Below the pieces are notes generated by a model. The model made no database searches and was not told the origin of the DNA. It saw only the letters and a program-made list of their open reading frames with translations. Shown here one piece after another: positions 25,685-48,132 of a stretch of DNA of 64,000 bases. The stretch spans positions 2,364-66,363 of the forward strand of contig JAKAWQ010000009.1 in assembly GCA_021816925.1 (NCBI GenBank). Reading direction: 5' to 3'. Every line of letters starts with the position of its first letter. Within the stretch, counting starts at the first letter, position 1. The position numbers were made by a program, and so were the translations under genes. Source of the DNA: Pseudomonadota bacterium. GTDB taxonomy: Bacteria; Pseudomonadota; Alphaproteobacteria; Acetobacterales; Acetobacteraceae.

Positions 25685-27736
<2,052 letters not shown>

Positions 27737-36754: not shown

Positions 36755-37477
36755 TCAGCAGCCGAGCTTCGCCGCCAGCTCGCAAAAATCCTTGGCCGTC
36801 ACGTCGAATTTCCGGCCGTGCGGAGCCTCGGCCGTCCCGCCCGGCCCGTGCTCTGCGGGTCGCGGCACGAACGCGGTGCGAAACCCGCGCCCGGCCGCCC
36901 CCGCAAGGTCGCTCGGATGCGCCGCCACCATCATTGAGGCCCCGGGCGCGAGATCGAGCAGCTCTGCGGCCCGGTCATAGACGACCGCATCGGGCTTGTA
37001 CGCGCGCGCGATCTCCGCGCCCAGAATCGCGTCCCACGGCAGCCCCGCGTGCTTCGCGAGGTTGACCATCAGCGCCACGTTGCCGTTCGAGAGCGTGGCG
37101 AGGATGAACCTCCGCTTGAGCCGCCCAAGCCCCTCCACCACATCGGGCAGGGTTCGAGACGATGCCAGGCCCGGTTGAGCTCATCAATCGCCGGCTCATC
37201 GAGCCCGGAGATCGAGAATTCCTCAAGCAGAAAAAAGATTTTCCCGATGGAGATCGTCGAGCTTCACCCACGGCCGCTCGCCCCGGCGCACCTTCTCTAT
37301 CGCCGGCTGATAGCGCGCACGCCAGCGATCGGCGAAGGCGTGCCAATCTCTCTCGAAGCCGCGTGGGCCGAGAGCCGCCCGCGCCTCGCTTGCGATGCTC
37401 TCCCGCCAGTCAACCACCGTCCCGAACACGTCGAAGGTGAGCGCGCCGCCGCCCGTGCCGGGGTTTTGACCAGCCAT
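36755..37477 (-). pseudogene. haloacid dehalogenase type II (HAD superfamily), split by a frameshift in a homopolymer run
   Basis: The N-terminal part (ATG 37477, MAGQNPGTGGGALTFDVFGTVVDW...LHRENLFSA*) and the C-terminal part (36755..37141, ...LATLSNGN...AYKPD...) are in different frames. Deleting one base of the A6 run at 37211-37216 restores ...HRENLFLLEEFSISGLDEPAIDELNRAWHRLEPCP... Confidence 0.75.
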
Positions 37478-39122: not shown

Positions 39123-39280
39123 TATCCCCTCCCCCACGCCCGCGGGCCCATGCCCCGCCGGGGCGTGCACTCAGCATCTGCGTTGCGCGGCCCTCCGATC
39201 AAGGGGAGCGCAAAAAGTTTGTAGCGCCCCACCCGAACGCGCGGCAAGGAGAGGAATCCGTGCTCCTCACGGCACCCGCC

Positions 39281-39610
39281 TCATCCCGGCCTTCCGGGCC
39301 TGAGCAGCCGGTCCGCCACCAGCCACGCCGCTCCACGCTGCCACGATACATCGTCATCGCCACTGAGATCGACGCTGCCAGACGCGATCACCTGCCCGCC
39401 CGGCACCGCGCGGATCGCGATATTCACGCTCAGGATCAGGGCTGAGACCTTCTGCACGAGGCCAGTTGCAACCGCCTCGGCTCCCACCTCCCGCGCCGGC
39501 GCAACCGCGCACCCGTTGCACCCCGCAAGGTCGTTCCCGGCGATCACGCGCGCGATCGGCTGCACGCTGCTGGCGACATAGGTGCCCGAGTGCTCGAGGA
39601 GCCGCATCAC
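39281..39610 (-). CDS. hypothetical protein; possible last gene (14) of the novel operon
   Basis: 109-aa ORF with GTG/ATG starts at 39610/39607. It is in the same orientation as gene 13 and 135 nt downstream of it. No clear SD or family was found, and its frame stays open upstream without a canonical start. Confidence 0.35.
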   Translation of the reverse strand: MMRLLEHSGTYVASSVQPIARVIAGNDLAGCNGCAVAPAREVGAEAVATGLVQKVSALILSVNIAIRAVPGGQVIASGSVDLSGDDDVSWQRGAAWLVADRLLRPGRPG

Positions 39611-39744
39611 CCGCTCCTGAATCCGCCGGATGCGCGCGAGATCAGCCGGGTTCGGCCGCGCGCCGGGGGCAGGATGGCTCGTGTCTTCGAGCGTGAACGG
39701 AAGGAAGGTGGTTCGGAGCGGCGCTCCCGCCCGCGCCCGCGCCG

Positions 39745-40203
39745 TTACCGGCAGCAGCCCGAGATGCCAGGCTCACAGCACCCGCAACCCATGAGCGCAC
39801 AGCAATCCGTTGCACAGCAGCAATGGCAGCCGCAACCGTATCCGTGTTCACCGCGCCAGCCTTCACCGTGCGGCAACATCTCCGCCGCGCCCCCGAGCGC
39901 GCCCGCACTGCTCGCGAGCACCGCATTGAGGAGTTCGATGCCGAGTCTCACCGTCGTGCCGAGCCCCTCGCCGATTGTGCGCACCCCGCCCGCGCTTCCG
40001 CCGGCCGCCCCACCCGGCGCGCCGAACAGCGCGAGCGAGGGAGGCACCGCCCAACCCGGCATCGCGCCCGGCATCACGCCCCCGGGCGGCATCATCACCG
40101 GCATCATCATCGGTCCCGCTGCCGCCATGCGCGCCTTGTAGCGCGCGAATTCCGCCTCCGCTGCGCTCGAAGGACGTTCCGCACCACCATCCGATCCGCT
40201 CAT
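39745..40203 (-). CDS. novel-operon gene 13: Met/Pro-rich protein with an extreme C-terminal Cys cluster
   Basis: The ATG at 40203 is preceded by GGGAGGGGCGGAG. The product is 152 aa. It has a Met-rich segment (PMMMPVMMPPGGVMPGAMPG), a Gly/Leu amphipathic segment and the tail GCGCHCCCATDCCALMGCGCCEPGISGCCR (12 Cys in 30 aa). Confidence 0.75.
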   Translation of the reverse strand: MSGSDGGAERPSSAAEAEFARYKARMAAAGPMMMPVMMPPGGVMPGAMPGWAVPPSLALFGAPGGAAGGSAGGVRTIGEGLGTTVRLGIELLNAVLASSAGALGGAAEMLPHGEGWRGEHGYGCGCHCCCATDCCALMGCGCCEPGISGCCR

Positions 40204-40219
40204 CTCCGCCCCTCCCTGC

Positions 40220-40798
40220 TCAGCAGCCGCAAATGAAAATCTCGCACCAGCGCACGCGCGCCGTCGCGTTGAGCGCCATCGCGACGAGCTTCGCTCCCGG
40301 CTTGGTCGTGATCACGCCCTCCTTTACGCGATAGGGCGTGCCCGCATTCTCCTGCCGTGCCCATAGCATCGCCGTGCCTTCGCTGTCGGTCACTTCGATC
40401 AGCACGATGAAGGGTTGCGTCGTCACCGACGCCGCGTACTCCACCGAAAGCGAGACACAGCACCCCCCGCCGATGAAGGCGGTGGCGGTCCCCAGGTTCT
40501 GCGTCTGCAGCGCCTGCGGACTCACCTCCGCGCCCGTCGGCTGCACGCGCTCGAGCATCGCCTTCGTCATCGTCGAGAGTTGCCCCACGGCCGCGCCCGG
40601 GGTGGCTCCCGCCGTGTCCCCTTGCTTCGCCGCCGGCTGCACGAGCAGCTCCTTCGCCTCGCGCCTGCACTCCCGGCAGCCGCAGCGGCAGTCCCCGCTC
40701 GGCGCGCCGCAGCGCCGGCAATGCCCCGGTGACCCGTACGTCATCGGTGCCCAGGCGCGCGTGCCCGTGTAGCGGGCCGCCTCGAACGGTCTGAACAT
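40220..40798 (-). CDS. novel-operon gene 12: Cys-rich protein, paralogue of gene 11
   Basis: The ATG at 40798 is preceded by AAGGGAGAGG. The product is 192 aa. It has an N-terminal HCRRCGAPSGDCRCGCRECRRE, a beta-rich core (...VSLSVEYAASV...) and the C-terminus ...NATARVRWCEIFICGC. Confidence 0.75.
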   Translation of the reverse strand: MFRPFEAARYTGTRAWAPMTYGSPGHCRRCGAPSGDCRCGCRECRREAKELLVQPAAKQGDTAGATPGAAVGQLSTMTKAMLERVQPTGAEVSPQALQTQNLGTATAFIGGGCCVSLSVEYAASVTTQPFIVLIEVTDSEGTAMLWARQENAGTPYRVKEGVITTKPGAKLVAMALNATARVRWCEIFICGC

Positions 40799-40817
40799 CG
40801 CAGCCTCTCCCTTTACC

Positions 40818-41219
40818 TCAGCAGCATACCCGCTCGCACCAGCGCACGCGCGCCGTCACGTTCGTCACCGCAAGCGTCACGGTCGATCCCGCCGCCACCG
40901 CACCCAGCCCCTCGTACACATGGTAGCCGGCCGCCGGGCTCGGATCGCTCCAGGTGGTCGCCGTTCCTCCGCTCGAGACAATCGTCACCGTCACCGAGGG
41001 CGTCGTGGCTCCGCTCGCCACCGAATACTCCACCGTGAGCCGGCTTTCTCCCCGGCCGCCCACCATCCCCGAGTTCGTCGGCGCCTTTGCGTCCGCGTCA
41101 ATCTCCTCCACCACCGTCTGCTCGGCCGCGCCCGGCCAGGGCAACACCGGAACCCACATCACGGGATAGCAGCCGCACGGCGGCGGGCCGCCGCATGGCC
41201 TCGGCGAATGCGCGTACAT
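40818..41219 (-). CDS. novel-operon gene 11: Cys-rich protein, paralogue of gene 12
   Basis: The ATG at 41219 is preceded by AAGGAGAGGG. The product is 133 aa. It has an N-terminal PCGGPPPCGC, a core (...SRLTVEYSVAS...) and the C-terminus ...NVTARVRWCERVCC. Confidence 0.75.
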   Translation of the reverse strand: MYAHSPRPCGGPPPCGCYPVMWVPVLPWPGAAEQTVVEEIDADAKAPTNSGMVGGRGESRLTVEYSVASGATTPSVTVTIVSSGGTATTWSDPSPAAGYHVYEGLGAVAAGSTVTLAVTNVTARVRWCERVCC

Positions 41220-41231
41220 CGTCCCTCTCCT

Positions 41232-41432
41232 TCAGCTTTGCGGCGGCTTGCCCGGCGCCGCCTCCGGTTTCGTCAAATCCCGTACGATCCCGAGCACGTC
41301 GTTCACGATTCCGAAGCCTGCGCTGACGAACCCCGTCACACTGTCCGAGATCTTCTGCGGGATCTTGTTGTCGATCAGCGCGGCGGCGGCGTCGTGCACC
41401 AGCTCACCCACCGGTCCCAGGATCCGTGCCAT
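41232..41432 (-). CDS. novel-operon gene 10: small (66 aa) amphipathic protein
   Basis: The ATG at 41432 is preceded by GAGGGAGAAGG. The product is MARILGPVGELVHDAAAALIDNKIPQKISDSVTGFVSAGFGIVNDVLGIVRDL... Confidence 0.65.
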   Translation of the reverse strand: MARILGPVGELVHDAAAALIDNKIPQKISDSVTGFVSAGFGIVNDVLGIVRDLTKPEAAPGKPPQS

Positions 41433-41447
41433 CGCCTTCTCCCTCGC

Positions 41448-42884
41448 TCACGCCCGCGCAGGCGCGGCCATCGCCGCCACTTCGCGCTCGGCGAGCCGGA
41501 GCGCCTTGCTCGCCACTTCAAAGCCCCAGCCGAGCTGCGGCATCGGGTCGCAGAGCGCCGCCCCGCCGGCCCGCGTGAAGCTTTCCGCCGCCCTCCGCGC
41601 GAGACCCCGCTCGCCCTCGTGCCAACGCAAAACCGCTTGCCACGCTCCGAGATCCTTCGGAAACGCCCGCCGGAGCGCCGCCGGCGAAACCGCCAGACGC
41701 TGCGCCAGCACGCCGCTGAACACGCCCGCCGCGAAGGCGCGGAAGCCGGCATCTCCCGCCGTCAGCCGCCCGATCCGCTCCAGCACCAGCAGGCAGAAAT
41801 CGCGGATCGCCGGGTTCTTCGCGATCGTCAGGAAAAGCTCCGCCGTCTGCCAGTCCGCACCTGTTTCACTCTCCCAGAGGCGGCGGTACAGGGCCAGCGT
41901 GCGCCGGGAAAAATCCCCCGCTGCGAACGCCGCTTCCGCCGCCCGCGCCGCATAGAAGGCGCTCTCCATCGCCTTGTGGATGCCGCCGCCGTTCAGCGGA
42001 TCCGCCTGGTTCGCGGCATCCCCCACCAGCATCACCCGCTCATCGAAGATCTTGTCCGGCCGGAAGAACGCCGAAGAGCCGCCGGCAACTGCGCCCAACC
42101 GTTCCGCCCCAGAAAGAACCTCGGCAAGCTCACGCCTCAGAAATCGCCGGAACGTGGCGCCCGGCGCTTCGGGGAGCGGGAAAGCGGGGTCGAGCGCATA
42201 GCCGAGCCCGATATTCGCGAACCCCGTCTCGTCGGCGAAGAGCCACCCGTAGCCCGGAAAATAGGAGCGGTCGAAATAGACCTTGATCGGCGCGCCCTCG
42301 CATTTCACGCCGGTGAAATAGGCGCGTACCGAAACCGCCATCACGCCCGTCTTCAGCCGGTTGCCGATCGCCCGTGACACCGCGGAGGAAACGCCGTCCG
42401 CGCCGATCACGATGCGGCCGCGAAACTCCTCGCTTTTTCCGCCGCTCCTCGCGAACACGCTCGCGTATCCCCGCTCGCGTGACACGCCGCGCACCACCGG
42501 GCCGGCCCGGAATTGCGCGCCGTTGGCAAGTGCATTGCGAAGCAGGATATGGTCGAAGCGCCGCCGGTCGAGCAGCACGGCGAAGTCCGGATAGAGCGTG
42601 CGTTGCGGAAATCCCGCGCTCAGCGTTTTTCTTCCGTTGATGTAAAGATCGCACGCCTTGATGCAGCCCTTGGTCTCGGCCAGCACTTCCTCTGCGCAGC
42701 CGAGCCGGTCGAGCCAGGCGATCGCTTGCGGCGTGAGCCCGTCCCCGCACACCTTCTCGCGCGGGAAGTCCGCCTTGTCGAGAACGAGCACGTCCATCCC
42801 ACGACCCGCAAGAAAGCTCGCGGCCGCGGCCCCGCCCGGCCCCGCACCCACCACGATCACGTCATGCAGGGCCGCCGCGTTCAT
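41448..42884 (-). CDS. novel-operon gene 9: FAD-dependent geranylgeranyl-reductase family (MenJ-like) oxidoreductase with a roughly 100-aa C-terminal extension
   Basis: 478 aa. It has an FAD motif (VIVVGAGPGGAAAASFLAGRGMDVLVLDK) followed by FPREKVCGDGLTPQA, characteristic of the GGR family, then later GDAANQADPLNGGGI. The ATG overlaps the gene 8 stop as ATGA. Confidence 0.85.
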   Translation of the reverse strand: MNAAALHDVIVVGAGPGGAAAASFLAGRGMDVLVLDKADFPREKVCGDGLTPQAIAWLDRLGCAEEVLAETKGCIKACDLYINGRKTLSAGFPQRTLYPDFAVLLDRRRFDHILLRNALANGAQFRAGPVVRGVSRERGYASVFARSGGKSEEFRGRIVIGADGVSSAVSRAIGNRLKTGVMAVSVRAYFTGVKCEGAPIKVYFDRSYFPGYGWLFADETGFANIGLGYALDPAFPLPEAPGATFRRFLRRELAEVLSGAERLGAVAGGSSAFFRPDKIFDERVMLVGDAANQADPLNGGGIHKAMESAFYAARAAEAAFAAGDFSRRTLALYRRLWESETGADWQTAELFLTIAKNPAIRDFCLLVLERIGRLTAGDAGFRAFAAGVFSGVLAQRLAVSPAALRRAFPKDLGAWQAVLRWHEGERGLARRAAESFTRAGGAALCDPMPQLGWGFEVASKALRLAEREVAAMAAPARA

Positions 42885-43549
42885 CCGCTCGCCTCCACCG
42901 AAAGGAGCACAGGAATGCGTATCGTCCCCTCGCCCAGCACCACTACGCTGCCCCGATAGAGATCGGGCGGCAGTGCGTCGGGAATCATTCCTTCCAGCAA
43001 AAATTTCTCGAAATCCATCGGCGCGATCGCGATCTCCGGCGGCGTGACGCCGAGCGCGCCCTCGGGCAAAGTCGCGCCGGTCCGCTCACCCGCGAACGCC
43101 TCGACGAGAAGGCGCACGGGCTTCGCCGCCTCGGCCGATTCGTTATTGATCGAGAATGAAATGCGCACCGCACCGCCGGGCCGGAGCGGCAGGCGGTTGG
43201 TGATGCCGTAGGAGGGCGTCGCCGCGGCCGCGCCGGGCGCCATCGCGGCCAGAGGCCCCGGAGCCGCCGCCCCAGGTGCAACGCCCGGCGCCGCCGGCGG
43301 TTCCTCCGCTTGAGGGCTCAGCATCCGCTCGATGATCTTCGTCTGCGCCGCACTGCCGATCGTGCCGAGCATGGTAAGACCGAGCGAGAGCCCCGCCTCC
43401 GCGAGATCGAGCCCGCGCGCGAGCAACTCCCCGAACCGGTCGAGCCGCGCCTTGAGGTCAAGCGTGTCCTCCGGCGGCTGCGCTGGTGCCGCCTCGGACG
43501 GCGCCGCTCCGCCGGGTGCGGCCGCGCTGCCGTTGCCCCGCTCAGCCAC
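42881..43549 (-). CDS. novel-operon gene 8: hypothetical protein (amphipathic N-region, Pro/Ala linker, beta-sandwich-like C-domain)
   Basis: 222 aa with a GTG start at 43549 that overlaps the end of gene 7 by 8 nt. The C-terminal segment ...AVRISFSINNESAEAAKPVRLLVEAF...YRGSVVVLGEGTIRIPVLLSVE looks like an Ig/CARDB-type beta-sandwich (inference). Confidence 0.6.
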   Translation of the reverse strand: MAERGNGSAAAPGGAAPSEAAPAQPPEDTLDLKARLDRFGELLARGLDLAEAGLSLGLTMLGTIGSAAQTKIIERMLSPQAEEPPAAPGVAPGAAAPGPLAAMAPGAAAATPSYGITNRLPLRPGGAVRISFSINNESAEAAKPVRLLVEAFAGERTGATLPEGALGVTPPEIAIAPMDFEKFLLEGMIPDALPPDLYRGSVVVLGEGTIRIPVLLSVEASG

Positions 43550-43778
43550 GGCACCGGCACCCGTAGCAGGGCGGCTCGCAGCGGATGCACCATTCCTCGT
43601 GCATGCACGGGCGGGCCGGACATTCCAGGCCCCACACGATTCCCTCCGCCGTCTCGCGGATCATGCGCATCTCCCGGCGCGCAAGATGCACCGCCATATG
43701 CCCGAGCCGGACCGCGAGCACCGGCAACACCCCCGCCAGAAGCGCGAGCCCATCCGTCGCCGGCGGCCGACGCCGCAT
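43542..43778 (-). CDS. novel-operon gene 7: small (78 aa) single-TM protein with a Cys-rich C-terminus
   Basis: The ATG at 43778 is preceded by GGGAGG and lies 1 nt after the gene 6 stop. It has a hydrophobic helix (LALLAGVLPVLAV) and the tail ECPARPCMHEEWCIRCEPPCYGCRCRG (7 Cys). It is hidden inside the longer track ORF 43542..44099. Confidence 0.6.
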   Translation of the reverse strand: MRRRPPATDGLALLAGVLPVLAVRLGHMAVHLARREMRMIRETAEGIVWGLECPARPCMHEEWCIRCEPPCYGCRCRG

Positions 43779-43779
43779 C

Positions 43780-44385
43780 TCAGCCTCCCGCCCGATAGGC
43801 AAAGCCGGGCGGGCCGCAGCGCAGCGCGCGCGCCGGCGCCACCGGCACCGCCCGCGCACACCCCTCCTCGAGCCGGCTCGGAATTGCCGGATTGCCGAGG
43901 GCCGCCACATCGGCAAAGCTCCTCTCGTGCGCATGCGATTCCTCGCGCCGCGCGCACTCCCGCGGCACCACCCGCGTCCGGCCCGCGATCTCCACCCGCA
44001 GCACCTCGAAGCCCAGGAGCCGCGCCCGCGCCGTGTATTGCGAAGGCAGATCGAACACCTGATGAATGCCGATCGCGACCGGAGGGATCCGCGTGACATC
44101 GATCTCCACCCCCGGCACCCGGCTCACCGAGAGATTGACCATGGGCAAGCGCGTCACGTTCAGTTGCTCGACATGCAGCGGATCGATTTCCCGCACCCGA
44201 TCGACTGAGAGCGATTCGATCAGCAGCGGCTCGATCTGGTTCAGCTCCTTCACATGCACCGCAACCGGGGCGACCTTCTCGACCGCCGCGATCGTCACCG
44301 GCGCGATGTTGTCCACTTCCTCGATCGTGACCGGATTGAGCGTGATCGGATCGACGCCCGTGACCTGTTTGATATTGACGTCCAC
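43780..44385 (-). CDS. novel-operon gene 6: protein with a periodic V/I-x-P repeat region
   Basis: The GTG at 44385 is preceded by AAGGGAG. The product is 201 aa. Residues about 8-110 form roughly 9 degenerate 11-13-residue units (VDPITLNPVTIEE / VDNIAPVTIAA / VEKVAPVAVHVKE / LNQIEPLLIES ...). Confidence 0.7.
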   Translation of the reverse strand: MDVNIKQVTGVDPITLNPVTIEEVDNIAPVTIAAVEKVAPVAVHVKELNQIEPLLIESLSVDRVREIDPLHVEQLNVTRLPMVNLSVSRVPGVEIDVTRIPPVAIGIHQVFDLPSQYTARARLLGFEVLRVEIAGRTRVVPRECARREESHAHERSFADVAALGNPAIPSRLEEGCARAVPVAPARALRCGPPGFAYRAGG

Positions 44386-44398
44386 GTCTTTTCTCCCT

Positions 44399-45094
44399 TC
44401 AGAGTCCCGGCCAGACGTAATTGAGTACGATCACCTTCGCGGTGTCCGCCACCTGCGGCATGCCCGGGATTTGCACCGTCACACTGTGCTCGGCCGTGCC
44501 GCCGCTCGGCGGCGGCCGATAGAGGAACCAGACTTCGCTGCCCCCCTGCACCGCCCCGTCCACGAGCCAGATCACGCCCGTAGCAGGGCTGTTCCTCGGA
44601 AACGCCCGGAACAGCTGCATCTTGTTCCGCTCGTCGATATACGCATTGTCGTCACCCGAGGCGTAGTAGAGCGTTCGGCTCTTCGGCCAGAGCTCGATCG
44701 TCGGCGCGGGCACGGGCAACGGTCCCACGCCGATGAGCGTCACGAACGCGAACGCCTTGCGCAGCGGATCCGCCCGCGCCGTCGCCACCACGAGATCGGT
44801 GGTGCCGCTGGCAAAGAGCCCCTTGTCCGGCGCCCGATAGAGCCCCGTCTGATCGATCGTGCCGGCCCCCGGCGATCCGTCCGGGGCGATCACCGCGAAG
44901 TTCACGCCGGTATCGGCGTTGCACACGAGAGCCCGGAAGCGGATCTCCGTGTTCGCCCGATCCGTCCAGCGCTCGTCACGGAAATAGAGCTCTGCCTCCG
45001 CCGGCCGAATCTCCACCTCCACGCGGTGCCGCCACACGCCCTCGCGGAGGATACGCCAGTCCTCCCCTCGGCCCGCGTGCACCCGATGCCTCAT
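44399..45094 (-). CDS. novel-operon gene 5: hypothetical protein with an Ig-like segment
   Basis: 231 aa. The ATG overlaps the gene 4 stop as ATGA. The segment ...VNFAVIAPDGSPGAGTIDQTGLYRAPD... resembles bacterial Ig-like (Big) domain signatures. There is no signal peptide. Confidence 0.7.
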   Translation of the reverse strand: MRHRVHAGRGEDWRILREGVWRHRVEVEIRPAEAELYFRDERWTDRANTEIRFRALVCNADTGVNFAVIAPDGSPGAGTIDQTGLYRAPDKGLFASGTTDLVVATARADPLRKAFAFVTLIGVGPLPVPAPTIELWPKSRTLYYASGDDNAYIDERNKMQLFRAFPRNSPATGVIWLVDGAVQGGSEVWFLYRPPPSGGTAEHSVTVQIPGMPQVADTAKVIVLNYVWPGL

Positions 45095-45492
45095 TCCTCG
45101 AACGCCCCCTCGACCGCGGCCTTGAGCAGCCGGCCCGGCACCTCGCCCGTGAGATCGACCTCAACCGTCCCCCGCGCGCTCCCTTCCAGCGCGCATCCGC
45201 CCTCGCCGTCGCCGATCCTGCCCTCCACCCCGACACCGTGGGCGCGGATCGTTGCATTGGCCGGCTTGATATGAATGCGGAACGGACCCACCGATCCCGC
45301 CGCCACGCCCCGCGAGGGTGACAGAAACGGAATCCGCATCAGCAAAGGAATCGCCGCCACCTCGGCCTGAATCGTTCCTGTTGCGATTTCAAGCGCACCC
45401 TCCCCGTTCAGCGCGAAGGAAAGCGGCGCCATCTGCGTGCGCAGCCGGAACTCCGGCGCGCCGGCAAGCGTCACGTGCGCGGCGAATTTCAT
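45091..45492 (-). CDS. novel-operon gene 4: hypothetical protein
   Basis: 133 aa. The ATG overlaps the gene 3 stop as ATGA. I recognise no family. Confidence 0.65.
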   Translation of the reverse strand: MKFAAHVTLAGAPEFRLRTQMAPLSFALNGEGALEIATGTIQAEVAAIPLLMRIPFLSPSRGVAAGSVGPFRIHIKPANATIRAHGVGVEGRIGDGEGGCALEGSARGTVEVDLTGEVPGRLLKAAVEGAFEE

Positions 45493-45683
45493 GGCGCCTT
45501 CTCCTGCGCCTCTTCTCCTCCCTCCGGATAGACGCGCCGCGCGAGGTCGGTGAACATCGCATCCACCGTCTGGTTCAACCGTTCGAACCCGTCCAGCGCC
45601 TTGGCGATCTCCTCGCAGTTCTGCCCCTGCACCTCGAAGTGCACCATCGGCCCGAGGCGGATCGAAAGATTGATGCGCGCCAT
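45489..45683 (-). CDS. novel-operon gene 3: small (64 aa) hypothetical protein
   Basis: The ATG at 45683 is preceded by GGGGAGA. The product is MARINLSIRLGPMVHFEVQGQNCEEIAKALDGFERLNQTVDAMFTDLARRVYP... It is hidden in the longer track ORF 45489..46025. Confidence 0.6.
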   Translation of the reverse strand: MARINLSIRLGPMVHFEVQGQNCEEIAKALDGFERLNQTVDAMFTDLARRVYPEGGEEAQEKAP

Positions 45684-45700
45684 TGTCCCCGTCTCCCCGC

Positions 45701-46291
45701 TCAGCCGTTGCGCCGCCCGCGCCCGGTCTTCACCTGCTGCTCGGCCTCGCGCACCCGCCCGATCAGCAGTTCGAGCGAGGTCAGCACGGTGTCCAGCACC
45801 TCCCGCTCGCGCTGCCCGAGCGCCCGATAGAAGCGCGCCAGCTCCGCCCCGATCTTCCGCCCCTCCTCCGTCTTCCGGTAATCCTTGCCCCGCTCCTGCA
45901 AGACGCTCCCGAACTGATCCAGAACCGAAACCAGCCCGAACAGGAGGTCCGGCCCGGCCTTCGCCTCCGACTTCACCTCCTCGTCCCTCGCCTGGCTCTC
46001 CGGCATCGGCCTGCACCGCCTGCATCTCTTGATCCCGTCCTCAGGCCCGATCCGCCAGAGCCCGTAGGAGGCGGAGCACGCATCCTCGGGAATGGCCCTG
46101 CAGCCGCGCCGGTGCACCACGCCGCGCACGGCATCGAACCGGTAGGGCGCCGCCTCGGTCTCCTCGCGGTTGTCGATCCGAAGGAGCGTGTTCCATTCGC
46201 CGCGCCCCCGTTCCCGATAGAGCGCCTGGATGGCGATCGCCGCCTGCTCGACGAGCGGCCGCCCGCCTTCCCCGCTCATTCCCCACTGCAT
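45701..46291 (-). CDS. novel-operon gene 2: hypothetical protein with a 4-Cys (zinc-ribbon-like) motif and a helical C-terminal half
   Basis: 196 aa. The ATG directly abuts the gene 1 stop (TGAATG). It has CRAIPEDAC...24 aa...CRRC, then a charged helical region (...KDYRKTEEGRKIGAELARFYRALGQREREVLD...). Confidence 0.65.
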   Translation of the reverse strand: MQWGMSGEGGRPLVEQAAIAIQALYRERGRGEWNTLLRIDNREETEAAPYRFDAVRGVVHRRGCRAIPEDACSASYGLWRIGPEDGIKRCRRCRPMPESQARDEEVKSEAKAGPDLLFGLVSVLDQFGSVLQERGKDYRKTEEGRKIGAELARFYRALGQREREVLDTVLTSLELLIGRVREAEQQVKTGRGRRNG

Positions 46292-47212
46292 TCATTCATA
46301 GACATCCCACGCCCCACCGTCCTGCCGCTGCCGGCGATGCTTCTCCAGCCGGGTCGCGTAGTAGCGCCCGAGGAAGCCGAGCAAGAGCGAGCGCCCCGGC
46401 CCCGGCTCGAGACTCGCCTCGATCCGCCGGCGATGCCTCGCGTAGATACGACCGAGTGCGCGCTCCGGAGCATTGAGCCGGTTCATGTATGTCACCCGCC
46501 CCTCCTTGCGGTCGGCGTGGCAGTCGCCGTGATCGTCGATGAACATGATCAGGGCGCCCGCGCTGAAGAGCCCCGCAAGATACGAAAGGGCAACATTTTG
46601 CACAAGGAATATCGCCAGCACCAGGATCGCGTGTCCGCTCCGGTTGCGTGCCGAGCGGCGAAGCACCGCAAGTTCCCGCGCCCGCGTGAGACCCGTCACC
46701 CGCGCCGGCTCGAGCCGCAGCATCACGTCCTCCGCCTGCGCCGCGTGCAGGTGAACGATCGCCTGGCGAAGCAGCGGCGCGAGCACGTCGCGCTCGATGA
46801 ACATGGAGGCCACGATCACGTAGAACAGCCGCTCGCGCGCGTTTCGGATCTCGAACCAGCCGGTTGCCAGCAGCCGCTCGAACCGCGCGAGATACTCGCG
46901 CGCCGCGCTCTCGCCGAAGTCGTCGAGGAAGCTGTCCGCCAGGAAGCAGCAGCAGCCGAACAGGATGGCAAGCCGCCGCCGGCCGGCATCGAAGGTTTCA
47001 CCCGCAATCTCCGTGCAGGCGTGCCCGACCAGCGCCATCTTCGCGCTGAGTTCCAGCATCTTGCGGTATTCCGGCCCGTTCGCGGCCGCCAGTGCCGGGT
47101 AATAGGCCCCGACCAGCGGCGCGAGAACTTCCTTCACCTCGCCGCGATAGCGCCGCGAGAGTTCTTCGAGGCGAGCCGCGTCGGCCCCTTCGCCCGCCGC
47201 CAACCCGGCCAT
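46292..47212 (-). CDS. novel-operon gene 1: helical protein with two Asp-rich motifs (isoprenoid-synthase-like; inference)
   Basis: The likely start is the ATG at 47212, with GGAG 5 nt upstream; the track extends to 47374. The product is 306 aa. It has DSFLDD at residues 93-98 (46919-46936) and DDHGDCHAD at residues 226-234 (46511-46537), about 133 residues apart. Confidence 0.65.
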   Translation of the reverse strand: MAGLAAGEGADAARLEELSRRYRGEVKEVLAPLVGAYYPALAAANGPEYRKMLELSAKMALVGHACTEIAGETFDAGRRRLAILFGCCCFLADSFLDDFGESAAREYLARFERLLATGWFEIRNARERLFYVIVASMFIERDVLAPLLRQAIVHLHAAQAEDVMLRLEPARVTGLTRARELAVLRRSARNRSGHAILVLAIFLVQNVALSYLAGLFSAGALIMFIDDHGDCHADRKEGRVTYMNRLNAPERALGRIYARHRRRIEASLEPGPGRSLLLGFLGRYYATRLEKHRRQRQDGGAWDVYE

Positions 47213-47784
47213 AGCCACTCCGTTCCCCCCGTCCGCTGCTTGCGAGGAGCGAACGCCTCTCTCCCGCGCCGCCACGCCGGCACCGAAACAGAAATTGAGC
47301 TTACGACCGCGCAACCATCGCATGCAACGGAAACCCGCGCTTGCCCGGCAAACCGCCTCCCCCCGGGCGGCCACGCTGCTGGCATGCCCGCTCCGCCGGC
47401 AGATCGAGCGAACGCCGGAGTGCCGTCGCCGCGCTCACCATACCCATGAAATGATGCGTGAAATCATCCGGCCCGTAGCCGCCGAAATCGCCGGGCAGGT
47501 CGGCAAGCCGTGTCTCCGGGCCCGCCAGCCCGCCTGGTGCAGCACGCGACCGCGACCGCACCAGTTACCTTAGCCGACGCAGCGGGCTTCGAGTTACAAG
47601 GGTCTCGCGCGTGCTCTGGTCCCATCGCTGACGCGCGGTGGGACCCTGCGGCTGGTGGCCGGCCACGCGCAAGATCAACGAGAACACCAGCGGCCTCACC
47701 CTCGTTCGAAGAGGCAGGAATTGAAGCCGCGGGTGTGACGCGTCTCACACCGCTCAGCCGCAAGCCCCGCTATTCTCGCGTCCC

Positions 47785-48132
47785 GTGATGCACCCGCCCG
47801 CCGACACGGATCCCGAGAAGGACGCCGCCATGCTTGCCGAGGCCGCTCTCGCCCCATCCCGCCCGCGCACGCTGCCCCCCGGCCTCGCGCGCCTGCCCAC
47901 GGAGCATCTTGCCTTCGCCGGCCGCCTGCTCGCCTTCACCTACGACGATCGCGGCCGCTGCGACGGCTTCGTGCTCGAGCTGCAGGGCGGCGAAGAACGT
48001 TGTTTCGAAACCCGCGAGCCAGGGATCGAGGCCGCACTCCGCCGCGCGCTCGCCTCCGGCGCGCGGATGACGATCCTCACCGCCGCCGCCCAGCCCCGCC
48101 GCCCGCTCGCGATCCTCCCCGGCGAGGACTGA
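47785..48132 (+). CDS. hypothetical protein
   Basis: 115-aa ORF (GTG 47785 or ATG 47788), divergent from the novel operon. It has a plausible globular C-terminal half (...LLAFTYDDRGRCDGFVLELQGGEERCFETREPGIEAAL...). I recognise no family. Confidence 0.4.
   Translation: MMHPPADTDPEKDAAMLAEAALAPSRPRTLPPGLARLPTEHLAFAGRLLAFTYDDRGRCDGFVLELQGGEERCFETREPGIEAALRRALASGARMTILTAAAQPRRPLAILPGED

Follow-up and report, generated by a model that had tools for sequence, protein, structure and literature searches.

The window analysed here, a 64,000-nucleotide stretch of contig JAKAWQ010000009.1 from a member of the Acetobacteraceae (window GC content 68%), carries on its minus strand a tightly packed operon in the order A360, B196, C64, D133, E231, F201, G78, H222, a geranylgeranyl-reductase homologue, I66, g11, g12 and g13. 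This work is concerned with g11 and g12, genes 11 and 12 of the operon, which encode small Cys-rich proteins with a common C-terminal tail, and with the isoprenoid-type enzymes encoded alongside them, among them A360, the first gene. The same genes were found in the same order in 58 species-representative genomes from more than eight phyla, and in 57 of the 58 loci a g11 orthologue lies directly upstream of g12.

The g11/g12 pair and its shared tail

The features of the pair are as follows.

40818-41219, minus strand: g11, a jelly-roll protein of 133 residues with a Cys/Pro/aromatic-rich N-terminal extension and the C-terminus ...TARVRWCERVCC
40220-40798, minus strand: g12, its paralogue of 192 residues, with an N-terminal Cys knuckle, a low-complexity linker, a jelly-roll and the C-terminus ...TARVRWCEIFICGC
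40821-40856, minus strand: segment coding for the g11 tail (T122-C133), including the identical stretch 40833-40857
40223-40264, minus strand: segment coding for the g12 tail (T179-C192), including the identical stretch 40241-40265
40667-40720, minus strand: N-terminal Cys cluster of g12, CRRCGAPSGDCRCGCREC, with the spacing C27-x2-C30-G-x-P-x3-C37-x-C39-x-C41-x2-C44 and a CxxCG knuckle
40457-40471, minus strand: GGGCC motif of g12 (G110-C114), at the start of strand 114-123, with C113 and C114 invariant; absent from g11
41169-41198, minus strand: N-terminal patch of g11, PCGGPPPCGC, a degenerate form of the knuckle

The two open reading frames (ORFs) are 19 nucleotides (nt) apart and each has a GGAG-type ribosome-binding site ahead of it; the Shine-Dalgarno sequences are good for both, with gaps of 12-19 nt. 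The earlier note on this DNA, which was made from the letters alone, described the genes as adjacent paralogues, and this proved to be significant: the proteins are 38% identical across 88 residues (E 2e-11, BLASTP), and the profiles of the two families align along the whole C-terminal domain (probability 99.5%, E 4e-23, profile-profile comparison). The N-terminal Cys patches and the endings that it gave, RVCC for g11 and IFICGC for g12, are those of the translations, and both tails contain TARVRWCE. Since the family profiles align over the whole domain and g11 stands beside g12 in nearly every locus, the sequences place the duplication before the spread of the module.

The segments coding for the tails are identical over 25 nt (40241-40265 and 40833-40857), exactly as had been reported, and this is the longest word common to the two genes. 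At up to three mismatches it has two matches in the window, both in g11/g12, compared with 0 in 100 shuffles; a repeated DNA or RNA element was rejected, as the word is confined to these two genes within the window. All eight codons in the stretch are the commonest ones of this genome; once the residues are the same, all eight codons would agree with a probability of ~0.007, a value calculated after the fact. Outside the tail, 15 of the 24 residues identical between g11 and g12 use the same codon, against ~12 expected. In the tails of 56 other genomes with both genes the same codon is used at 156 of 308 identical residues, where local codon usage would predict 131.8, and gene conversion was accordingly rejected as a general cause of the identity. 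Because the amino-acid motif is kept in both families everywhere and the codon usage is biased, the nucleotide identity is best seen as a by-product: judged from these sequences it reflects amino-acid constraint and codon bias, and recurrent gene conversion is not needed. A short conversion tract local to this genome may exist, though it is not needed to explain the identity either. Thus, of the 'strong constraint or gene conversion' that had been proposed for the tail, the constraint stands, the tail being the best-conserved segment of both families in each phylum sampled, and gene conversion does not.

The same comparison bears on the reading in which the tail has no special role and is either a recent gene-conversion tract or a chance likeness of unrelated small ORFs. 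The 25-nt identity does lie somewhat above the prediction from codon bias, which speaks for such a reading. Yet more than eight phyla keep the motif in both families, the tails of the other genomes share codons about as often as expected and the homology spans the whole 88-residue domain, and we regard this reading as refuted by the comparative data and hardly worth any credence. A terminator-like hairpin (40243-40260, minus strand) within the g12 tail segment is the only one in 39200-47900, where 3.7 are expected from shuffles, and is probably meaningless.

Conserved cysteines on a jelly-roll core

At least 324 homologues of g12 were found in the protein collection, none of them with a Pfam domain and nearly all named hypothetical; a word search gave 13 close homologues of g11. 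The earlier note had suggested a search of homologues for the tail motif, and the motif is indeed kept across the 175 distinct g12 and 71 g11 sequences over which we counted Cys conservation. In g12, Cys is found at positions 27, 30, 37, 39 and 44 in 95-98% of the sequences, at 113, 114 and 185 in 100%, and at 190 in 99%, and R181, R183, W184, C185, E186, F188 and C190 are invariant. The usual C-terminus is ...ARVRWCE[VI]FSC, and about 77% of the members stop at this single Cys (-FSC); an extra terminal Cys beyond C190 is present in 23%, and the CGC ending is limited to the nearest relatives of the g12 of the window. In g11, Cys128 is conserved in 97%, Cys132 in 89% and Cys133 in 87% of the sequences, so that about 87% end in ...RWCExxCC. 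The remaining ~13% end in CF, SC, CR, TY, TF, EY, TC or S, and in two of these exceptions the strand Cys is replaced by Phe. What never varies in either family is the motif A-R-x-R-W-(C)-E, together with E-Y in an earlier strand and two Gly residues. By sequence, then, what is conserved is one Cys closing the last strand and another at the C-terminus; the CC/CXC class is not the conserved feature, because a further terminal Cys occurs in so few g12 proteins.

The N-terminal clusters vary more between lineages. Deep-branching g11 proteins have the CxxCGxPxxxCxC knuckle as in g12; it has decayed to PCGGPPPCGC in the lineage of the window, and g11 of Nitrospira has no N-terminal Cys. In many g12 homologues the cluster is preceded by His-rich runs such as HHHHHH...HPHAHH. 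CxxCG knuckles are typical of zinc-ribbon and rubredoxin sites. Compared with PDB sequences, the g12 cluster matched zinc-ribbon segments at E ~0.7, which is not significant.

An AlphaFold2 (AF2) model of g12, built from a 47-sequence alignment, has a mean predicted local distance difference test (pLDDT) score of 76. Residues 102-187 are modelled as a beta-sandwich (pLDDT ~83-94 as means of 10-residue blocks), in which residues 178-187 form the final strand; 114-123 and 47-53 are also strands. The tail (181-190) has a pLDDT of 82, its Cys residues lying 0-5 residues past the end of the last beta-strand, and the N-terminal cluster, at pLDDT 67-79, runs into strand 47-53. Foldseek returned generic jelly-rolls only (carbohydrate-binding modules, C1q/TNF-like heads, tail-fibre tips, birnavirus VP2 and, weakly, Ena2A), at E around 4e-4 and template-modelling (TM) scores of about 0.3, and the core is predicted to be a generic eight-strand jelly-roll. 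By the standard pairing of such a fold, we infer that the last strand lies between strands 47-53 and 114-123, antiparallel to both. C44 with its cluster, C113/C114 and C185/C190 would thereby be brought to the same corner, as judged from strand order.

These results bear directly on the link that the earlier note drew between the CC and CXC endings and the motif classes recognised by Rab geranylgeranyltransferase. The likeness is that the window copies end in CC and CXC, that most g11 homologues end in CC and that isoprenoid enzymes are encoded nearby. However, the CC/CXC class is not conserved in g12, with its ~77% of single-Cys endings; the ~13% of g11 sequences depart from it; and one locus (L048) in which A360 and the reductase are kept and g13 is absent has a g11 ending in VEY and a g12 ending in FSG, without any terminal Cys. 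Unlike those of Rab substrates, the Cys residues of g11 and g12 are not on a flexible hypervariable tail: their segment lies in or near a strand and is the best conserved one. No prenyltransferase alpha or beta subunit and no escort protein was found among the operon proteins with Pfam and NCBIfam, the search covering the operon only, and the candidate transferase, A360, has a fold unrelated to that of Rab geranylgeranyltransferase. By the features tested, g11 and g12 are not Rab-type prenylation substrates, and the link therefore falls. A non-Rab form of the lipidation idea is unlikely but keeps some weight, because the operon encodes an enzyme of isoprenoid-synthase fold and one or two geranylgeranyl-reductase homologues.

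What the tail does instead is quite possibly non-lipid thiol chemistry, in which a multi-thiolate site would bind metal or serve for cross-links within a structural assembly, although we would stop short of calling this probable. In this proposal the ancient paralogues g11 and g12 would be non-enzymatic jelly-roll subunits of the cytoplasmic 13-gene module spread across phyla. On the model, the tail consists of the last beta-strand (A-R-x-R-W-C-E) and a stub of 3-5 residues with Cys as the final residue. Three groups of Cys would meet at one pole: the strand-end and terminal Cys, the GGGCC of the neighbouring strand (in g12 only) and the CxxCG knuckle leading into the N-terminal strand. The resulting multi-thiolate corner would hold a metal ion or a small metal-thiolate cluster; in addition or instead, shared metal or disulfides might bridge neighbouring subunits, so that g11 and g12 would be locked together in an assembly that also takes in the Cys-rich g13 and G78.

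Several observations argue for this proposal. Nine Cys of g12 are conserved in 95-100% of the sequences, compared with 23% for the extra Cys that makes a CC or CXC ending; the CxxCG knuckles, the CxC and CC runs, the His-rich flanks, the varying number of terminal Cys and the predicted convergence fit a metal site or a cross-link. Elsewhere in the operon g13 has a metallothionein-like tail and B196 an invariant H/C/C/C set, and there is a precedent in the mercury(II) reductase MerA, which is encoded in the same window and whose C-terminal vicinal Cys pair is a metal ligand. The terminal CC, CxC and CxxCG patterns with their His-rich flanks resemble those of MerA, metallothioneins and zinc ribbons, with the difference that g11 and g12 have no homology to these families.

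On the other hand, there was no significant match to metal-binding families, the zinc-ribbon similarity at E ~0.7 being the nearest, and the convergence of the Cys groups is deduced in the model from strand order alone. Disulfide cross-links are unlikely in a reducing cytoplasm. The proposal also leaves unexplained both the only enzymes of the operon, a protein of isoprenoid-synthase fold and the homologues of geranylgeranyl reductases, and the fact that three proteins in succession have Cys right at the C-terminus.

The closest architectural parallel, the endospore appendages (Ena fibres) of Bacillus, counts partly for the proposal, since these fibres show that jelly-roll subunits from adjacent paralogous genes, with Cys in the N-terminal connector, are able to form covalently tied polymers within a cell. 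Ena1A and Ena1B are encoded by adjacent paralogous genes, have ~120-130 residues and roughly 39% identity, and form a single eight-strand jelly-roll; in Ena fibres an N-terminal Cys connector and a core-strand Cys link the subunits, which have no signal peptide and are assembled inside the cell (bioRxiv 10.1101/2020.08.21.260141). Like the Ena proteins of Bacillus, g11 and g12 are adjacent paralogues with an eight-strand jelly-roll, an N-terminal Cys connector and a core-strand Cys, features known here from genes and models. Unlike them, they do not match DUF3992 (no Pfam match at E <=0.1, and the profile search of the PDB returned no Ena chain), and the likeness to Ena2A in fold is weak (TM 0.2-0.28), and the resemblance is architectural only, which counts against the proposal. 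The hosts of the module are mostly Gram-negative and non-sporulating; g11 and g12 have many more Cys residues, in the CxxCG knuckle and at the C-terminus, and belong to a 13-gene operon with isoprenoid enzymes. By analogy, g11 and g12 may work like Ena while standing outside the DUF3992/Ena family.

Isoprenoid-type enzymes of the operon

Two kinds of isoprenoid-type enzyme are encoded in the operon.

41448-42884, minus strand: geranylgeranyl-reductase-family flavoprotein (TIGR02032, 197.2 bits against a cut-off of 158.8)
46292-47212, minus strand: A360, an orphan enzyme of class I isoprenoid-synthase fold with invariant DSFxDDF and IDDHGDxxxD

The best PDB match of the flavoprotein is 3oz2, an archaeal digeranylgeranylglycerophospholipid reductase (E 1e-24), and its motifs FPRxKVCGDGL, FPGYGWxF...GxANxGxG and GDAANQxDPLxGGG are invariant or nearly so in 21 orthologues. 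By family model, flavin-binding motif and the CG(G/D)G and YxWxF motifs, its sequence is that of a geranylgeranyl-reductase family member. It also scores against QhpG (107 bits), LodB and GoxB, enzymes of Trp-derived cofactor maturation, and against flavin halogenases, in the last case well under the cut-off.

These scores are the starting point for a different use of the tail, in which the flavoprotein would modify its Trp-Cys pair, hydroxylating Trp184 or cross-linking it with Cys190 into a quinone or thioether cofactor, as in the biogenesis of cysteine tryptophylquinone. The pair is suited to this in that Trp and Cys are invariant neighbours, with the second Cys six residues off. We nevertheless consider it very unlikely: the scores for QhpG, LodB and GoxB are far under the family cut-offs (240 and 400 bits) while the geranylgeranyl-reductase model is passed, and the reductase-type CGDG and YGWxF motifs are invariant. 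Trp184 is in the last strand, on its hydrophobic face, and on the model is probably buried. The flavoprotein is also missing from some operons, and no radical-SAM or other maturase is encoded in the operon.

The AF2 model of A360 has a pLDDT of 91.8 and a predicted TM score of 0.91. Its top 50 fold matches in the PDB, at TM 0.44-0.63, are all of the class I isoprenoid-synthase fold and include farnesyl diphosphate, geranylgeranyl diphosphate and long-chain synthases, CrtM-like enzymes and class I terpene synthases, among them BalTS (5yo8) and the diterpene synthase Sat1646 (7e4n), the best match at TM 0.63. In the model, the first Asp motif, D89-D94, closes helix 72-93 and the second, D222-D226, closes helix 205-225. 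The sequence is another matter. A360 proteins are 52-83% identical across phyla, and a profile run against 1.84 billion representatives gave one full-length cluster (at 50% identity) and fragments, and besides these four borderline relatives (E 1e-4 to 8e-4), whose FQxIDDxxD resembles the second Asp-rich motif of prenyl-diphosphate synthases. Among 34 members of the family there was no match to polyprenyl_synt or SQS_PSY at E <=10, and the sole match to a terpenoid family was that of one member to Terpene_synth_C at E 0.23; one remote relative, P0299, touches polyprenyl_synt at E 0.014. A link by sequence to a named isoprenoid family was thus rejected, given the one tight cluster, the four borderline relatives and this one weak contact, and A360 is, with its fold taken from the model, an orphan by sequence within the isoprenoid-synthase fold. 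Class I enzymes that cannot be recognised by sequence have precedents (PMC11234867). A metagenomic protein of 461 residues, P0255, looks like an A360-B196 fusion, diverging after residue ~253 and resuming as B196, which is probably an assembly frameshift.

A360 has Cys-Cys at -4/-5 before the first Asp motif, the chain-length-determining positions. Small residues there permit long chains in prenyl-diphosphate synthases. Before DDHGD it has L-I-M-x-I, in which M219 and I221 are invariant or nearly so.

An enzyme of this kind, encoded with reductases and Cys-ended proteins, makes endogenous thioether lipidation by the operon's own enzymes the main rival to the thiol chemistry proposed above, though a doubtful one. 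A360 would ionise a C15-C20 prenyl diphosphate, and the acceptor would be either the Cys at the C-terminus of g11, g12, g13 and G78 or the strand Cys with its flanking Arg, a transfer that we think improbable. In an equally unlikely second step, the reductase homologues would saturate the attached chain, giving phytanyl-like anchors at the inner membrane face or around a lipid core. What commends this scheme is that most of the 58 loci keep A360 and a reductase gene, or two of these, in a conserved order with g11 and g12, that A360 has a confidently predicted isoprenoid-synthase fold with two Asp-rich motifs and the small Cys-Cys pair before the first of them, and that the reductases retain the catalytic motifs of their family. 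Enzymes of the geranylgeranyl-reductase family often reduce prenyl groups already attached to a larger scaffold. Lipidation would also explain why three neighbouring proteins each place Cys right at the C-terminus, in a window with a background Cys content of 1.0%, and PalQ, a bacterial enzyme of the same fold, strictly needs its acceptor residue at the C-terminus of the peptide (PMC13290415).

Yet the known peptide prenyltransferases of this fold offer no example of such a reaction: ComQ, ChrPC and PalQ have Trp as their target in every case, with a Gln preceding the second motif as a common feature (PMC13290415), none acts on Cys, and A360 lacks that Gln. Loss of the enzymes from the operon also leaves the tails untouched. 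The operons L001/L012, from Acetobacteraceae metagenome-assembled genomes (MAGs), are without A360, B196 and the reductase, with tails unchanged, and L058 has no reductase, whereas L048 keeps both enzymes though its g11 and g12 have no terminal Cys and g13 is missing. The Cys/His-rich patterns resemble metal sites, a tail with 10-18 Cys, as in g13, is an unlikely target of lipidation, and the terminal Cys is merely 3-5 residues from a folded strand. The thiol-chemistry and lipidation readings are not mutually exclusive.

In comparison with characterised enzymes, A360 is like ComQ and PalQ in its all-alpha isoprenoid-synthase fold with two Asp-rich motifs and in being encoded beside its presumed substrates. 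It differs from them in having Ile/Met in place of the Gln, in showing no sequence similarity to them and in that it would act on folded proteins, whereas they prenylate Trp on short peptides. It is also like the non-canonical class I terpene synthases (classes IB to IF), in that its fold is seen only from structure and its Asp motifs are unconventional. However, these enzymes make free terpenes and, unlike A360, are not found in a conserved operon of structural proteins, and the DSFxDDF and IDDHGDxxxD motifs differ from theirs.

The module across phyla

The other genes of the operon, and two neighbours that bear on it, are listed below.

39745-40203, minus strand: g13, 152 residues, C-terminus GCCR; it has an amphipathic helix, and its metallothionein-like tail contains 12 Cys among the final 31 residues
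41232-41432, minus strand: I66, a conserved helical protein of 66 residues, directly upstream of g11
42881-43549, minus strand: H222, an amphipathic N-terminal helix and a beta-rich C-terminal domain
43542-43778, minus strand: G78, a small Cys-rich protein ending in CEPPCYGCRCRG, inside a longer spurious ORF
43780-44385, minus strand: F201, rich in Val, Ile and Pro, with short irregular repeats and a conserved RREQSxxHERSFPxVAAAGNPAIPS
44399-45094, minus strand: E231, a conserved beta-rich protein ending in ...LNYxWPG
45091-45492, minus strand: D133, a conserved small beta-rich protein
45489-45683, minus strand: C64, a conserved protein of 64 residues (LGPMVxFEVxGxNCxEI...)
45701-46291, minus strand: B196, with invariant H60, C64, C90 and C93 and a helical C-terminal half
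26096-27736, plus strand: MerA, a full-length mercury(II) reductase (NF010311, 797 bits) ending in ...LSCCAG
39281-39610, minus strand: a DUF3280 (PF11684) gene directly downstream of g13, adjoining the operon only here and in its closest relative, L005

Among the operon proteins a Cys ending is confined to g11, g12 and g13, and elsewhere in the window, among 49 further genes, Cys within the last six residues is limited to MerA and an ORF of the haloacid-dehalogenase family (36755-37141, ...LGC). MerA lies ~12 kb from the operon, an association that other loci do not conserve. The g13 gene is present in 35 loci; the tails of its orthologues have 10-18 Cys, preceded by His/Asp, and most end in P-[GS]-V-x-x-C-C. 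Orthologues of G78 were seen in L005, L007, L008 and L010, and 90-residue versions ending in CCVPPCYGCGGCCT in L002 and L003. The H/C/C/C set of B196 suggests, by its sequence pattern, a candidate small zinc-type site. H222, I66, G78 and g13 have in common an amphipathic helical segment, [LI]G..[IL]......L.L..G as judged by eye, which could be a common docking or membrane-binding peptide. A regular repeat in F201 was rejected, as autocorrelation gave no clear period.

Pfam, NCBIfam, PADLOC and PHROGs returned no match for any operon protein except the reductase homologue, and sequence-profile searches of the PDB with g12, A360, E231, F201, H222, B196 and D133 gave nothing significant. No further paralogy within the operon was found for H222 or E231 when compared with g12, and no signal peptide or membrane anchor was seen in any of the operon protein sequences. 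No copies of the operon were found on plasmids or viral contigs in PLSDB and IMG/VR. An origin from a virus or plasmid was rejected for this reason, the viral fold matches of g12 being generic fibre-tip jelly-rolls. We came upon no account of the whole module, with its ten small proteins, its orphan enzyme of isoprenoid-synthase fold and its geranylgeranyl-reductase homologues, in the literature searched. In our judgement it lies outside the known kinds of system, and the function proposed for it is inferred.

The operon was found in Alpha-, Beta- and Gammaproteobacteria, Nitrospirota, Methylomirabilota, Nitrospinota, Actinomycetota, Acidobacteriota, Verrucomicrobiota and sulfate-reducing Deltaproteobacteria. 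Its carriers include Acetobacteraceae, Rhizomicrobium, Reyranella, Caulobacter and Hypericibacter; others are Paraburkholderia, Rhodocyclaceae and several Gammaproteobacteria, many Nitrospira, Methylomirabilis and Nitrospinota, as well as Solirubrobacterales, a MAG labelled Bacillaceae, Acidobacteriota, Verrucomicrobiota, Chitinivibrionales and SEEP-SRB2. Its composition varies to some extent: g13 is missing from Nitrospira-type operons, G78 was detected in some loci only, and each operon with a reductase has one or two copies of it, two tandem paralogues being present in L002, L003, L011, L014-L016, L019, L029, L033, L034, L050 and L056.

A module that is so widespread, horizontally mobile and tightly organised must build something specific, and the only enzymes in it are of isoprenoid type, set beside ten small proteins that are non-enzymatic, four of which have Cys-rich ends. 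To our knowledge, protein S-prenylation is viewed as confined to eukaryotes and, in a different form, archaea. If the tails were prenylated, this would be the first endogenous protein S-prenylation in bacteria, with enzymes and chemistry unrelated to the eukaryotic CaaX and Rab machinery, and a new acceptor chemistry for the isoprenoid-synthase fold. Both readings are directly testable, as the carriers include the cultured Paraburkholderia panacisoli DCY113, Caulobacter sp. BK020 and Nitrospira sp. T9. If, on the other hand, the thiols bind metal or cross-link subunits, as we propose, the module would represent a new kind of intracellular protein assembly in nitrifiers, methane oxidisers and other bacteria of environmental importance.

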